This document shows positions 4,095 through 9,890 of a stretch of DNA of 64,000 nt, piece by piece. The translations under genes were made by a program, and so were the position numbers. Source of the DNA: Escherichia coli (GTDB lineage Bacteria > Pseudomonadota > Gammaproteobacteria > Enterobacterales > Enterobacteriaceae); assembly GCF_003018235.1 (NCBI RefSeq), contig NZ_CP027437.1; one strand, 5' to 3'. Positions within the stretch are counted from its first letter, which is position 1, and each line of letters starts with the position of its first letter. The notes below the pieces were generated by a model. That model saw only the letters and a list, made by a program, of their open reading frames with translations, was not told where the DNA came from and searched no databases.

Positions 4095-4821
4095 CGGGCG
4101 CTCCTTGCCAGAATGCCTGGATTAACGCAGTGAGGCAGCCACAGACAATGCCTGCCAGAATGGCGACGGGAATAGAAAATAGCGTTACGCCTGCAAGGGC
4201 ACCAACTAACGCTGCGGTAACGCAAAGAGATTGTTTGCGCTGGAAAGAGGCGAGCAGGAAACTCATAAAGAGTGCCGGAAGCATAAAACCTAATGCTGCT
4301 TCAACGGCGGGATATCCTTGCAGCAAGCCGCTGCCGGAGAATGCCCCTATTACCGTACCAAATACCCACGATGACCATGAACTGAAGGCAATGCCGATCA
4401 TCCAGTTCTCGCTCCAGCGGCGATTATTGCGTACCAGTTTTGCGGTTGCGGCGGCAAAAACCTCATCCGTCAGGCCAAATGCCCACAGGGCGGTTTTCGA
4501 TTTTTGCAGACGCTGAATAATACGGCTACGCAGTGACGGGCCATACAAAACATGGCGAACATCCATTGCCATGACGGTCAGTGCAGCAACCCACAAACTA
4601 CTCCCGGCTGCCAGCATCGCGGTAATGACGAACTGGCTCGCGCCTGCATAAATGATGCAGGAGAAAAAGACGCTTTCGAGAGGAGAGAATCCCAGACGGG
4701 TCGCATTCAGACCGAACGCAAAGGCCACCGGAATATAACTAATAACAATCGGTAAACTGTCTTTGCATCCTTCCATGAAGGTCGCCGAACCAGGAGCAGG
4801 CTGTGGAGTAGGGCTTTCCAT
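4084..4821 (-). CDS. ygaZ: Branched-chain amino acid (L-valine) exporter large subunit YgaZ (AzlC family)
   Basis: 245-aa membrane ORF; synteny. Confidence 0.88.
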
Positions 4822-4944
4822 AGAGTGTACGCTTAACGATTGTTAATATTATAAATAGACTGAATGAATATCTTAACCTTATCAGACTGATGGGCTTCTT
4901 AACACCCTTATAAGTGTAAAGCCACGAAAACGGTTGCTGATTGC

Positions 4945-6129
4945 TTAATTTGCAGCTTCCTGACGATGAAAACCTCGCCACCAGACCAGTAAGTTAACCA
5001 GGGCAATCGTCGCGCCAGCCAGACAAACGCCAGCCCAACCGCCATGTTGCCAGGCTGAGGCTGAAATTAGCGAACCGGCGGCACCGCCAATAAAGTAGCT
5101 GGTCATGTAACCTGCGGTCAGGCGATTACGCGCATCAGGGTGTATTCGATAAATTACCGTCTGGTTAGTGATATGCACGCCCTGCACGGTGAGATCCAGC
5201 ACCAGGATGCCGATAATCAAGGCCAGTACGGAAGTGTGGCCAAACCAGATCGCCAGCCATGAAAGTAATAGCAGCAGCAGACCGAAAGTAGTGGTGTGGT
5301 GCGATTTACCCTTATCGGCAAAACCGCCCGCCGGACGAGCACCCAACGCTCCGGCAGCTCCCGCAAGTCCAAACAGACCAATTACACCATCGCTGTAGTT
5401 AAAAGGTGGAGCGGCAAGCAAAAAGGCCATTGAGGTCCAGAGAATGCTGAAGTTGGCAAAGGTGAGGCAGCCCAGCAACGCACGGGTGCGCAGGATCTTA
5501 TCGCTGATAAACATGCTGAAAACGGAACCCAACAACTGTGGGTAGTTGAGGTGGGTTTCTGATTTCATTTGTGGCAGACCACGCCATAATGCCAGCGCCA
5601 TCAGTGCCATTAACACCGAGGCAACCCAAAAGACGGTGCGCCAGCCGCCGAGGTTTGCCAGCAACCCGGCAACGGTTCGTGCCAGCAAGATCCCCAACAG
5701 CAGCCCGCTCATAATGGTGCCGACCACTTTGCCGCGTTTGTCTGGTGAAGCCAGCGTCGCTGCCAGCGGAACCAGAATTTGTGCCACGACCGAGAATAAA
5801 CCGGTCAATGCCGTACCGAGGATCATCATCGCCAGTGACTGACTGCTGGCAGTGATTAACATACCGCCCGCTGCCAGTAAGGTCATCGAGACAATCAGGC
5901 GGCGGCGTTCAAACATATCACCGAGGGGAACAAGAAACAGCAGACCTGCGGCATAGCCCAACTGCGCGGCGGTAACAATAAAGCCCGCCGAACTGGCGGA
6001 AAGGGAAAAGTTACGCGCGATGGTGTCGAGTAATGGCTGGGCGTAATAGTTACTGGCTACCGCCAGACCGGTGGCGATAGACATCAGCACGATCAGCGCC
6101 GGGCTAAGCTCATGATTAGGTTTAGTCAT
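4945..6129 (-). CDS. ygaY: MFS transporter YgaY, intact 394-aa ORF here (split pseudogene ygaX/ygaY in K-12 as I recall)
   Basis: Uninterrupted 12-TMS-like ORF; position between ygaZ and proX. Confidence 0.8.
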   Translation of the reverse strand: MTKPNHELSPALIVLMSIATGLAVASNYYAQPLLDTIARNFSLSASSAGFIVTAAQLGYAAGLLFLVPLGDMFERRRLIVSMTLLAAGGMLITASSQSLAMMILGTALTGLFSVVAQILVPLAATLASPDKRGKVVGTIMSGLLLGILLARTVAGLLANLGGWRTVFWVASVLMALMALALWRGLPQMKSETHLNYPQLLGSVFSMFISDKILRTRALLGCLTFANFSILWTSMAFLLAAPPFNYSDGVIGLFGLAGAAGALGARPAGGFADKGKSHHTTTFGLLLLLLSWLAIWFGHTSVLALIIGILVLDLTVQGVHITNQTVIYRIHPDARNRLTAGYMTSYFIGGAAGSLISASAWQHGGWAGVCLAGATIALVNLLVWWRGFHRQEAAN

Positions 6130-6580
6130 TATTTTTGTTCATCAAGTGATGATTAAGCTGGAAATCAATAATAGCGGATGTTGATGAATATGGGATGAAG
6201 ATAGATTGTTAAAATGTGCGGGTAATGGGGAGAGGGTATTTGAAGGTGAAATATGCCACTAAGGCAAATGTTACGTTCACTTCCAGACTATAGCTACTTT
6301 GTCACTATTTTGCTGGTGAACGTGCCAGGGTGGCTCAGTCGCCACCACCCTGGCGACCCAGGCTTTTGGCACAAAATCGCCGCTACGCGGTACATTCGAC
6401 TTATTTCTTACGGCTATCGGGTACGGGCGCGAGGTAACATCCCTGTAAGACGCGCCCTCGCCGCGCATCCCTGCGCGTCGCCCCGGCCTTCAGAAAACGT
6501 CTCATCGATTTTCAGCCGGATTAAAACCATCGCTGCAATTGTTTTACTCACATGAGCATTATCTGCGCGGTTATCAATAT

Positions 6581-7573
6581 TTACTTCTGCGCTGCCAGCG
6601 CCTCATTCACCCAGCCATCGAACTGCTGCTGGTGGGCTTTGATCCAGCCATCAACGTGGCCCTGAATATCGCCTTCTGAGGCTTTGCCGTCATGCATAAT
6701 GGCGTTCTGGGCGTTAATATCTGCCACTGGTAACTGCATAATGGCAAACAGTTTCGCTGCTGCCGGGTTTTTCTCGGCCCAGGCTTTGTTGGCAACGATA
6801 TGCATGGTACTGACCGGGAAGCCGTAATTCGCGCCATTCGGCAGTTTGGTATCGGCATTTTTATCGCCCGGCAGTGCGGAGAACGGCACCTGCAACCAGA
6901 CCACATCTTTCCCCGGTTTCAGTTCGTTACTCACCCAGTACGGCGTCCAGGTGTAGTAAAACACCGGCTTACCCTCTTTGTAACGACTGATGGTGTCAGC
7001 CATCATCGCTGCGTAGTTCCCCTGATTATGCGTCACGGTATTGGTCAGTCCATACGCGGCAAGCTGGTGGTTGATCGCACCTTCGCAGCCCCAGCCAGGG
7101 TTACAGCCAGTCAAATCCGCTTTACCGTCGCCGTTGGTATCGAACAGTTTGGCGATCTTCGGATCTTTCAGTTGCGCGATGTTGGTGATTTTGTACTGGT
7201 CGGCAGTTTTCTTATCGATCAGGTAACCCTGTGCCGCGCCGTTAACAAATACTCCTTCACGATAAAATTTCTTATCGCCACCGGCAGCTTCGTACATGTT
7301 GTCATGCAGTGGCGTCCAGTTCACTGCGGTGAAGGTTGCATCGCCGGAAGCAAGCGAGGTGTAGCCAACGTTGTAATCCACTTCGCTGGGTTTATTGACG
7401 GTATAACCTAATTTCTCCAGCGCGCGGCTGACCAGCAGCGTCTGGAAAGTTTCTTCGGTGATGGTGCTCTGAACCGGATTAACAGTAATGCCTTTGCCCG
7501 GCAGGTCGGCAGCAAAAGTTTGTGTAGAGATAAGCGTGGCAAACGCTGTCGCAAAAAGTACGCTATGTCGCAT
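6581..7573 (-). CDS. proX: Glycine betaine/proline ABC transporter periplasmic binding protein ProX
   Basis: ORF 6581..7615; start trimmed to [11 protein letters not shown] signal peptide; proU operon synteny. Confidence 0.93.
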
Positions 7574-7630: not shown

Positions 7631-8695
7631 TTACTTAATGAATGGGCGGGTCAGCAGACCGACAGGGCCAGTGGTGTACCAGCGACGGTTGCCGCGACTG
7701 CGTGAGTCGCGCCCAACGGCCTGCGTCAGGCGGTCGAGGATAATGGCGAGGATCACAATCCCGACGCCGCCAACGGTGGCAAGCCCCATATCCAGACGAC
7801 CGATACCGCGAAGCACCATCTGACCCAGCCCGCCGACGGCAATCATCGAGGCGATGACCACCATAGAAAGGGCCAGCATCAGCGTCTGGTTAACGCCCGC
7901 CATAATGGTCGGCATCGCCAGCGGTAACTGAACTTTGAACAGCATCTGGCGCGGGCTGGCACCGAATGAGCGCGAGGCTTCAATCAGATCCGCCGGAACC
8001 TGGTTAATTCCCAGAATCGTCAGACGGATAATCGGCGGCAGAGCAAAGATGATCGTCACCACCACGCCCGGCACGTTACCGATACCAAACAGCATGACGA
8101 TTGGCACCAGGTAGACAAACGCTGGCGTGGTCTGCATGGCATCAAGCAGTGGACGAATAATTTTCGCCGCTCGCGGACTTCTCGCCAGCCAGATCCCCAA
8201 CGGCAAACCTATGACGATACAGAACAGCAGGGCGGTTAACACCAGCGCCAGGGTAACCATGGCCTGCGACCAGGCACCGATTGCGCCGATGGCAATCAGC
8301 GAAACCAGAGTCGCCACGCCCATTCCGACACCGGAAATTTGCCAGGCGATGAGAGCGAAAACGATAATCGCCACCGGAGCGGGCATACCCAGCAGCAATT
8401 GCTGGAAACCGTTGAGGATGTAATCAACCGGAACGCGCACGCCCTGGAAGACGGGACGGAAATGGGTAACGACCCAGTCGATCCCTTCAGTGACCCAACT
8501 GTCGAGCGGGATCAGCGTTTTATGGAACGGATCGAGAATATTAAAATGCTCGACGTTTGGCGCTGGCGTACTGGTCAGCCAGTCAGCACCACCGCCGTCA
8601 GTCGGTGCAGTCGCCGGTGTACCCCAGGCGTCTGCGGATTGTGCAGCACTGTCCGCCGCTGGCGTGGTATCCCACGGATTATTTTGATCAGCCAT
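7631..8695 (-). CDS. proW: Glycine betaine/proline ABC transporter permease ProW
   Basis: 354-aa permease ORF overlapping proV stop. Confidence 0.93.
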
Positions 8696-9890
8696 TATTT
8701 ACCCCCTCACGATCTAAAGCGCGCAGCAGCATTCCTTTCGAAATGATGCCGACATACTGTTGGTCCTCGTCGACCACGGGCACCGCACAGGGTGCCTGTC
8801 CGACATGAGAGAGCAACTCGCTAAGAGGCGTTTGTGCATCGACCGCTAACGGCGCATCAATCAGCGCCGCATCAAGACCTTGCTGCTGCGTTAACGCGGC
8901 TTTAAGCGAATCGATAGACACAGCGCCGACAAACTTATTACCGCGTTCGATGACGTAGCCATATTCGCGATCTTCATCCTGCAATAATTTCAGTGCCGAA
9001 CGCGGGCCGAAGCCGGGGGTTTTACGAATTAAGCCGTTCGGTGTACGACGGGCAATATCTTTCGCACTGAACACCTGGCTAATATCGACGCCACGGAAGA
9101 AGGTACGGACATAATCATTCGCCGGATTATTAAGAATTTCATCCGGTGTACCAACCTGCACCACTTCACCATTTTGCATAATGGCAATTCGGTCACCAAT
9201 ACGCATAGCTTCATCGAGATCGTGGGAAATAAAGACAATGGTGCGCTGATGTTTCGCCTGTAATTTTACCAGCTCATCCTGCATCTCGGTGCGAATTAAT
9301 GGATCGAGCGCCGAGAAGGCTTCGTCCATTAATAATATATCCGGATTAATCGCTAACGCGCGGGCTAATCCCACACGTTGACGCATCCCGCCAGAGAGTT
9401 CATCCGGGTAGCTGTGGGCATAATTTTCCAGCCCGACCTGACGCAGTGCATCAAGGGCTTTTTCCCGGCGTTCTTCGGCATTAATTCCGGCCAATTCCAT
9501 ACCGAACGCAGTATTGTCCAGCACGGTCATATGCGGCATTAAGGCAAAGGACTGGAAGACCATCGCAATCTTTTTTCTGCGCACCTCACGGAGTTCGGCG
9601 TCGGATATTTTGGCAATATCCACACCATCAATCAGCACTTGCCCGCGGGTGGGTTCAATCAGGCGATTGAGAAGGCGTACCATTGTGGATTTACCCGAAC
9701 CGGATAATCCCATGATGACAAATATCTCGCCTTCTTCAATGGCCAGACTGGCGTCTTTTACGCCAAGCGATAGCCCAGTTTTTTCCAGAATTTGTTCTTT
9801 TGAAAGTCCTTGTTCGATATATTTGAAAGCTCGCTGTGGATGCTCACCAAATATTTTATAAAGATTTTTAATTTCTAATTTAATTGCCAT
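8688..9890 (-). CDS. proV: Glycine betaine/proline ABC transporter ATPase ProV (ABC + CBS domains)
   Basis: 400-aa ORF with Walker [10 protein letters not shown] and LSGGMRQR signature. Confidence 0.94.

Follow-up and report, generated by a model that had tools for sequence, protein, structure and literature searches.

A diverged copy of the TRIP1/RRS intergenic repeat family in the proX-ygaY spacer of Escherichia coli

The spacer between proX and ygaY in Escherichia coli contig NZ_CP027437.1 (assembly GCF_003018235.1) is 451 bp long, versus 191 bp in MG1655, which raises the question of what the longer allele contains. Here, the window denotes the whole 64,000-nt stretch that was analysed. 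A first-pass annotation had described in this spacer a GC-rich segment with inverted repeats, either a repeat element or an RNA structure, and had placed it downstream of ygaY and upstream of proX. All genes of the cluster (in the order mprA-ygaH-ygaZ-ygaY-proX-proW-proV) lie on the minus strand, so that this placement was reversed: the segment is downstream of proX and upstream of ygaY. It is also only moderately GC-rich, with 54% over 6265-6545, as against 48% over the whole spacer and 33% over the adjacent 6130-6221. Its extent is as follows.

6222..6580, no strand assigned: strain-variable segment of 359 bp, standing in place of the ~100-bp pair of repetitive extragenic palindromic sequences (REPs; the pair forming a bacterial interspersed mosaic element, BIME) that follows proX in K-12 (MG1655 alignment).
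6250..6548, minus strand (the G-rich strand is the window's minus strand): diverged TRIP1/RRS-family element (BLAST, multiple alignments and element ends).

The helices of the element span 6274-6536, the remainder being conserved flank that includes an ATATG at ~6250-6254, and the element begins 33-45 nt past the proX stop codon.

We found that 6250-6548 very probably belongs, as a diverged paralogue, to TRIP1, an intergenic repeat family of Enterobacteriaceae. With 6222-6580 as the BLAST query, the TRIP1a copy of the aqpZ-lysO spacer (L006 2501-2656) was matched at 82% over 157 nt (E=1.5e-38), and copies in the asmA-yegH spacer were matched with E values of ~1e-57 to 1e-63. The alignments contain three subfamilies, namely A (TRIP1a-type, which is the RRS type), B (the asmA-yegH copies and the window copy) and C (Citrobacter sp.). 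The global identity of the window copy is 65.6% to TRIP1a, 63-66% to subfamily A and 75-77% to the asmA-yegH copies, and it is the most diverged E. coli TRIP1 member found in this analysis. The TRIP1a of Rudd (1999) is the aqpZ-ybjE(lysO) copy, and TRIP1a-e occupy the aqpZ-ybjE, putP-ycdN, yohI-yohG, alx-sstT and copA-ybaP loci (Li et al. 2024, PMC10888264); these copies are 146-273 bp long with 62-65% GC, have a predicted 'double-Y' RNA fold and vary in copy number and orientation. TRIP1a and TRIP1c are the 222-bp Replication Risk Sequences (RRS), per Pham et al. 2024 (PMC11194060). The window and asmA-yegH copies form a subfamily with loci outside the five that have been catalogued, and neither of these two papers (PMC10888264, PMC11194060) mentions proX, ygaY, asmA, yegH or CsrA. 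Since the BLAST match to TRIP1a covers 59-72% of the window element, below the 80% filter of the 2024 survey, the window copy would have fallen outside that survey.

The window copy shares with the described TRIP1 elements the core sequence, a branched multi-helix fold (the published one being described as a 'double-Y'), a similar length (~290 bp, versus 266-273 bp in TRIP1), an intergenic position 33-45 bp past a stop codon (38-96 bp in TRIP1a-e) and presence/absence polymorphism between strains. It differs from them in its GC content (54% versus 62-65%) and in its locus, proX-ygaY being none of the five described. In MG1655, the yegH-asmA spacer (L005 5502-5657) holds a TRIP1-like copy of ~156 bp that is 75% identical to the window copy and ends inside the element; this truncated copy is the fourth TRIP1-like copy of K-12, outside the three listed there as TRIP1a-c.

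To what extent the element is shared between strains was examined in 5426 complete E. coli genomes. At least 80% of 6222-6580 is present in 543-547 of them (~10%), mostly at 99% identity or more and at 100% in CFSAN018748 (NZ_CP028192.1), and paralogues of the segment lie elsewhere in 5425 of the 5426, at 1-10 related places per genome (median 3 by sensitive BLAST). In most genomes, part of the segment matches a second place at ~83% identity; the related places include the asmA-yegH spacer (full-length in ST131, truncated in K-12) and the aqpZ-lysO spacer. BLAST returned no second copy within the window itself. When one genome per species was searched for the 33-nt sequence of hairpin 2 (described below), 21 loci were returned, in E. 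coli, E. albertii, E. whittamii, cryptic Escherichia clades, two Citrobacter species and one metagenome-assembled genome, none of the 21 having proX or ygaY beside the element. The asmA-yegH copy occurs also in E. albertii and E. whittamii, and the proX-ygaY copy was seen only in E. coli. The repeat half of the earlier proposal is thereby upheld, both by these paralogues and by homology to a published family.

Moreover, BLAST against records filed as plasmids added copies from Klebsiella pneumoniae, K. aerogenes and C. freundii. Among the 27 'plasmid' matches many are very large, several being chromosome-sized (0.5-5.4 Mb) and others 74-320 kb, and all 27 are typed as non-mobilizable; the very large records are taken to be mislabelled chromosomes or chromosome fragments. 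Carriage by phages or plasmids was rejected on these grounds, the element having no phage matches. One chromosome-sized Klebsiella record of 5.37 Mb, filed as a plasmid, has 11 element places. Three Klebsiella copies at unrelated loci (L031, L033 and L034) also have extra conserved flanks of ~100 nt on each side, beyond the Escherichia element; on the G-rich strand, these comprise a REP-like palindrome and ...cctgcctttaatttattcacc... at the 5' side, and ...aaacgttttt...gttgcaaaccga... at the 3' side.

A consensus fold was computed with RNAalifold on 18 copies. It contains 13 helices with 67 pairs, of which 98.7% of the cells are paired. Changes on both sides were found in 24 of the 67 pairs, versus 0-5 when the partners were slid by 1-3 columns, and none of 500 shuffles reached the observed covariation values. 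The window copy retains 64 of the 67 consensus pairs, while the Klebsiella and C. freundii copies retain 60-64, with further compensatory changes that include hairpin 2. Secondary structure is thus conserved with compensatory changes, in agreement with the structural half of the first-pass proposal. In the window, the fold is made up of the following parts.

6274..6322, minus strand: helix H13, with arms 6274-6280 and 6316-6322, around a variable inner hairpin.
6323..6355, minus strand: hairpin H11/H12 with the inverted repeat, arms GCCAGGGTGG (6324-6333) and CCACCCTGGC (6345-6354).
6372..6513, minus strand: long-range closed domain (RNAalifold consensus and pair counts).
6372-6379/6506-6513, 6394-6400/6499-6505 and 6404-6408/6492-6496, minus strand: helices H1, H2 and H3, respectively, of the closed domain.
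6412-6421/6482-6488 and 6380-6390, minus strand: helices H4/H5 and side hairpin H9, respectively, also of the closed domain.
6425..6457, minus strand: hairpin 2, minus-strand loop region UUACAGGGAUGUUAC, its GGA opposite the plus-strand TCC at 6440-6442.
6459..6480, minus strand: hairpin 1, minus-strand loop CAGGGAUG, its GGA opposite the plus-strand TCC at 6468-6470.
6514..6536, minus strand: tentative terminal hairpin CAGC...GCTG, seen by eye and absent from the RNAalifold consensus.

The perfect 9-bp inverted repeat of the first-pass annotation is real, and its arms in fact measure 10 bp (GCCAGGGTGG/CCACCCTGGC, 100% complementary, 11-nt loop). A perfect stem of at least 10 bp with a loop of 3-20 nt arose in 2 of 500 dinucleotide-preserving shuffles of 6130-6580. 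This helix, H12, covaries between subfamilies, reading GCCAGGGTGG/CCACCCTGGC in B, GCAGGGGGCGG/CCGCCCCCTGC in A (RRS-type) and GTTAAGGGAGC/GCTCCCTTAAC in C (Citrobacter). A similar pattern was observed for H13, the arms of which are CGTTCAC/GTGAACG in the window versus GCGCTCC/GGAGCGC in TRIP1a-type copies, with double changes in 3 of 7 pairs. The further GC palindromes noted earlier correspond to hairpins 1 and 2. Hairpin 1 has compensatory changes in 5 of 9 pairs around a loop, CA-N-GGAUG, that is constant in Escherichia, Citrobacter and Klebsiella. The 33-nt sequence of hairpin 2 is essentially invariant in Escherichia and some Citrobacter, and its stem covaries in Klebsiella and C. freundii, where the GGA is kept.

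As RNA, the window element has a minimum free energy of -108.9 kcal/mol (z = -3.2), and its G-rich strand as single-stranded DNA (ssDNA) has -63.4 kcal/mol (z = -5.2). On the G-rich strand, G.U wobbles occupy 38 cells in 14 pairs, as compared to 8 cells in 5 pairs for A.C, which are the wobbles of the other strand. Because G.U cells exceed A.C cells, the data modestly favour the G-rich strand (minus in the window) as the one that folds. Conservation stops ~25 nt outside the helices; a conserved TATGT-like hexamer, ~20 nt outside H13 on the C-rich strand and without a conserved -35 region, could simply be the element end. What the whole TRIP1/RRS family conserves is a multi-helix fold of one strand, which shows in part how the family works. 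An insertion of ~75-100 nt just after H9 is shared by Citrobacter sp. R56 (L013 ~1130-1230) and the E. whittamii asmA-yegH copy (L019 ~8600-8700); on the C-rich strand, it carries a CCCC-TTCG-GGGG hairpin with a C(UUCG)G-type tetraloop and may be an optional extra arm.

The two GGA motifs of the minus strand lie in hairpin loops and are conserved across genera, the two adjacent loops reading CA-N-GGA-Y-G on the G-rich strand in Escherichia, Citrobacter and Klebsiella alike. This arrangement recalls the Rfam model TwoAYGGAY (RF01731), a motif reportedly described by Weinberg in 2010. The closed domain overlaps a sub-threshold match to this model at 6382-6510 on the minus strand, scoring 28.2 bits (E=0.1), short of the gathering score of 43. 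The matches on other Escherichia copies, at 29.1-31.5 bits, share its strand and its arrangement (closing stem, hairpin, 1 nt, hairpin). In total, six loci are matched, among them the window and one that is matched in its core only; no match is listed for L002 (E. coli), L020 (E. whittamii) or L012 (Citrobacter), and the Klebsiella and C. freundii copies have no match to the model. Both window hairpins have AGGGAU loops; in the majority of the other copies, hairpin 1 has AUGGAU, and hairpin 2 either AGGGAU or ACGGAC. Thus the element resembles TwoAYGGAY in its closing stem, in its two adjacent hairpins 1 nt apart and in its GGA loops (A[U/G]GGAU), while it differs in that the window loops are AGGGAU and not AYGGAY, in scores (28-31.5 bits) below 43, and in an extra domain, H11-H13, which the model lacks. 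Given that the matches are sub-threshold and that diverged copies are unmatched, membership of the Rfam family was rejected and the similarity is treated as a resemblance only.

Given that the window copy is homologous to RRS, we also compared its replication context with theirs. The reports on RRS, of 2023-2024, present them as conditionally essential and as programming post-replication gaps, an activity attributed to a G-quadruplex (G4). They lie 650 kb on either side of dif, as an inverted pair flanking the Ter macrodomain (Pham et al., PMC10287960, PMC11194060). Their G4-forming strand, GGGGGTGCAGGGGGCGGCGG, is the lagging-strand template and blocks Pol I, II and IV, and the C-rich strand also blocks Pol II in vitro (PMC11194060). 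RecA/SSB-bound ssDNA gaps as long as 2 kb arise at any site into which RRS are placed; the RecA/SSB ssDNA peak is missing when RRS are inverted (Pham et al.). The corresponding part of the window is the following.

6342..6359, minus strand: stretch homologous to the RRS G4 motif, GGGTCGCCAGGGTGGTGG in the window versus GGGGGTGCAGGGGGCGGCGG in RRS (alignment; motif from PMC11194060).

The motif GGGGGTGCAGGGGGCGGCGG is absent from the window element. The highest G4Hunter score within the element, 1.08, falls at another site, compared to 1.8-2.8 at the G4 site of RRS-type copies; a sister copy in the asmA-yegH spacer (L011) has a stretch near-identical to GGGTCGCCAGGGTGGTGG that scores 0.96. In K-12, proVWX is on the plus strand at 2.80 Mb, while it is on the minus strand of the window, which has a GC skew of +0.044. 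On account of the synteny with K-12 and the agreeing sign of the skew, and assuming collinearity with K-12, the G-rich strand of the window copy corresponds to the plus strand of K-12 (position 2.808 Mb, left replichore), that is, the leading-strand template. The same orientation reasoning puts the G-rich strand of RRS-lysO on the lagging-strand template, as published. RRS at 0.915 and 2.229 Mb place dif at ~1.57 Mb, so that the K-12-equivalent window locus lies ~1.2 Mb from dif. Overall, the window copy is homologous to RRS, with the same fold, wobble pairs that favour the G-rich strand and a high predicted ssDNA stability, and it differs from them in the loss of GGGGGTGCAGGGGGCGGCGG, in its opposite replication orientation, in a position that is not symmetric about dif and in an allele found in ~10% of genomes instead of universally.

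Several other explanations of the segment have to be weighed. The K-12 allele of this very spacer carries REPs, the element lies just past a stop codon, and structured GC-rich extragenic repeats at gene 3' ends are what REP/BIME sequences are; the segment might accordingly be an ordinary REP/BIME, a repeat of the ERIC (enterobacterial repetitive intergenic consensus) type or nothing more than the intrinsic terminator that ends proX or ygaY. However, naRNA4, a REP-derived Rfam model that finds REPs in other loci, has no match in 4800-6800 even at E<=10. A REP consensus pattern matches neither the element nor any part of the 64-kb window, and is therefore probably too strict, naRNA4 being the better negative. 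One ERIC2 primer sequence, the form in which ERIC was searched, has no match either, which covers the ERIC part of the repeat-family check proposed with the first-pass annotation (RSA, another family named there, is cited as the same repeat as BEE95), and a consensus scan of 6100-6650 returned no promoter and no minus-strand terminator. With ~290 bp, 13 helices and homology to TRIP1, the element is also ~8 times longer than a REP, is multi-branched where a REP is a single imperfect palindrome, and has few copies per genome versus hundreds. We thus reject REP/BIME, ERIC and terminator-only identities as extremely improbable; the earlier view that the palindromes are not classic REP cores stands, and neither the ordinary REP/BIME nor the bare terminator that it had set as alternatives was found. 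A small protein is more improbable still. Two open reading frames (ORFs) do exist, at 6253-6555 (plus, 100 aa) and 6277-6468 (minus, 63 aa), and a K. aerogenes record (L033 2195-2776) annotates an 'Uncharacterised protein' over the homologous element, but between paralogues there are 1-2-nt indels and compensatory changes of both partners in the stems, as a folded nucleic acid, rather than a reading frame, would show, and RefSeq has no coding sequence there in E. coli. Both ORFs are almost certainly spurious.

The window copy might instead be a working RRS-like element, which folds when unwound and stalls DNA polymerases, leading to gaps or topological relief at a third site. Its homology to the experimentally characterised RRS, its intact fold (64/67 pairs) and the stability of its G-rich strand as ssDNA are in line with this, as are the activity of RRS wherever placed, the extra RRS of some species and the blocking of Pol II by the RRS C-rich strand. 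We nevertheless hold it to be quite improbable, considering the absent G4 motif, the low G4Hunter maximum, a G-rich strand on the leading-strand template (inverted RRS having no RecA/SSB peak), a distance from dif of ~1.2 Mb and not 650 kb, and an allele that is dispensable, being present in only ~10% of genomes. Somewhat less improbable, although still unlikely, is that the whole TRIP1/RRS family, including the window copy, is a structured RNA in which the two GGA loops of the G-rich transcript bind a CsrA dimer. The consensus selected in vitro (SELEX) for CsrA is RUACARGGAUGU, with the GGA in a hairpin loop, and the minus-strand loops UUACAGGGAUGU and GCAGGGAUGC come close to this sequence. 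The CA-N-GGA-Y-G loop persists from Escherichia through to Klebsiella and C. freundii on stems that covary, every TwoAYGGAY match listed in Escherichia copies has the same strand and architecture, G.U exceeds A.C on the G-rich strand, fold and loops are conserved across subfamilies while the G4 motif is not, and the G-rich strand is the sense strand directly after proX. In the window, the proVWX 3' untranslated region (UTR), or an RNA processed from it, would then be a CsrA-binding or titrating element, as proposed for TwoAYGGAY by Gardner and Eldai 2015 (PMC4333381). Against this, both transcription and CsrA binding are read from sequence; the scans gave no self-contained promoter or terminator, and conservation ends shortly outside the helices; orientation to neighbouring genes differs by locus and strain, so that transcription would yield the opposite strand for many copies; there are 2-3 GGA sites only, where the sponges CsrB and CsrC have many; the hairpin-2 GGA is itself partly paired by RNAalifold (in H8, an invariant helix); the Klebsiella and C. 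freundii copies lack any TwoAYGGAY match; and folded ssDNA also tolerates G.T wobbles. A broader version seems to us rather unlikely too, namely that the selected feature of the family is the TwoAYGGAY-like fold of the G-rich strand with its two invariant GGA loops and not the G-quadruplex, recognised by a protein as RNA or ssDNA, with CsrA the most plausible ligand; the G4-less proX-ygaY copy, transcribed in sense behind proVWX, which is induced osmotically, would then couple proU expression to CsrA availability, and the published RRS phenotypes would call for a re-reading.

We return to the explanation that we prefer, which takes the identity of the element, the mechanism of the family and the role of the window copy together and to which we assign a probability of roughly 0.55. 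For RRS-type copies, published experiments show that the G-rich strand blocks polymerases when it is the lagging-strand template and leaves ssDNA gaps of up to 2 kb. The window copy most likely does not trigger gaps, because it has no G4 motif, has its G-rich strand on the leading-strand template and lies ~1.2 Mb from dif. With the G-rich strand as sense strand, 33-45 nt past the proX stop codon, it would instead form a very stable stem-loop cluster ending proVWX read-through transcripts, acting much as the replaced REP pair would; the chance that this is its role, with no gap triggering, we put at about even. The element could also recombine homologously with other TRIP1 copies, and the window copy may be largely a passenger.

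Several observations weigh against this account. Orientation to the upstream gene varies, the C-rich strand being sense after aqpZ in K-12 and the G-rich strand in O145 and E69, which tells against a 3'-UTR role shared by the family; together with the failure to find a self-contained promoter, it counts against a general role at the level of transcripts. That transcripts run through the element, where their 3' ends lie and that they affect proU mRNA are all predictions. Moreover, a passenger in decay would not be expected to keep invariant GGA loops and 64/67 pairs, nor are these explained by a plain stem-loop role. The window copy still has a weaker G-tract pattern, G3-N6-G3-N-GG-N-GG, and could yet block polymerases through a two-tetrad G4 or purely through its hairpins. 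Finally, the allele is found in 515 genomes at 99% identity or more, with too little variation to test selection on the window copy.

Structural variation was observed at the related loci as well. In the asmA-yegH spacer, a segment of ~378 bp with the TRIP1-like element is inverted between ST131 (L001 2955-3235) and 2017-02-2CC (L002 2952-3232); in 2017-02-2CC, it is flanked by two inverted REPs, which could mediate the flip. The same 2017-02-2CC spacer holds an IS621 transposase gene beside the paralogue (L002 3231-4540). This IS110-family insertion sequence (IS) is inserted in a REP immediately beside the TRIP1-like element (junction ...cttatcaggcct|tgtattatccc...), and its non-coding left end, between the REP and the transposase gene, is presumably the bridge-RNA region. 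The candidate that the element is a remnant of an IS621/IS110 bridge RNA was rejected, as the IS sits in the adjacent REP and the element lies outside the IS. RRS-lysO/TRIP1a is naturally inverted relative to aqpZ and lysO in O145:H28 RM12581 (L008 2501-2689) and E69 (L017 3877-4157), with flanking spacer sequence that differs from that of the K-12-like L006 2413-2678; through this inversion, the G4 strand becomes the leading-strand template, the orientation in which no gaps were seen by Pham et al. In the colanic acid region, JUMPstart RNA (RF01707, 54-57 bits) was matched upstream of wza at L001 5332-5370, L002 812-850, L005 3423-3461 and L009 4875-4913; these matches are expected there and unrelated to the TRIP1-like element.

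The remaining features of the locus are the two flanking genes and the part of the spacer that adjoins ygaY.

4945..6129, minus strand: ygaY, intact gene for a major facilitator superfamily (MFS) transporter of 394 aa (ORF list; Pfam MFS_1; RefSeq homologue WP_000165699.1).
6130..6221, minus strand: AT-rich stretch upstream of ygaY, 33% GC, common to essentially all E. coli (genome matches; K-12 alignment).
6581..7573, minus strand: proX, stop codon 6581-6583 (ORF list and RefSeq annotation of the homologous locus).

The 92 bp adjoining ygaY are the only part of the spacer common to all E. coli, positions 1-91/92 of the spacer query having 95-97% matches in 5418 of the 5426 genomes, and they presumably hold the ygaY promoter. 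The first-pass annotation was right to describe ygaY as complete: the 394-aa product scores 142 bits against Pfam MFS_1 (cut-off 33.4), and a near-identical RefSeq genome has a gene of identical length annotated as 'MFS transporter' (WP_000165699.1). Its statement that the gene is split in K-12 is likewise correct, since ygaY of MG1655 is an annotated pseudogene in which, by alignment to the window gene, 7 bp are absent at gene nt 255-261, resulting in a frameshift.

Taken together, the segment is a real feature; it adds a diverged member to a known repeat family, at a locus that had not been catalogued, and its family identity is secure. For annotation, it accounts for the 260-bp length polymorphism beside the proU operon and marks the two overlapping ORFs as spurious, and it reveals a diverged subfamily (proX-ygaY and asmA-yegH) that has escaped the published surveys of TRIP1. 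For the biology of RRS, the window copy is a natural, strain-variable relative that has kept the fold and the GGA loops and lost the G4 motif, in the opposite replication orientation and at a different distance from dif. It therefore offers a natural control, or comparator, for which RRS feature (G4, hairpins or loops) causes gap formation. The hint that recognition of the GGA loops matters is testable.

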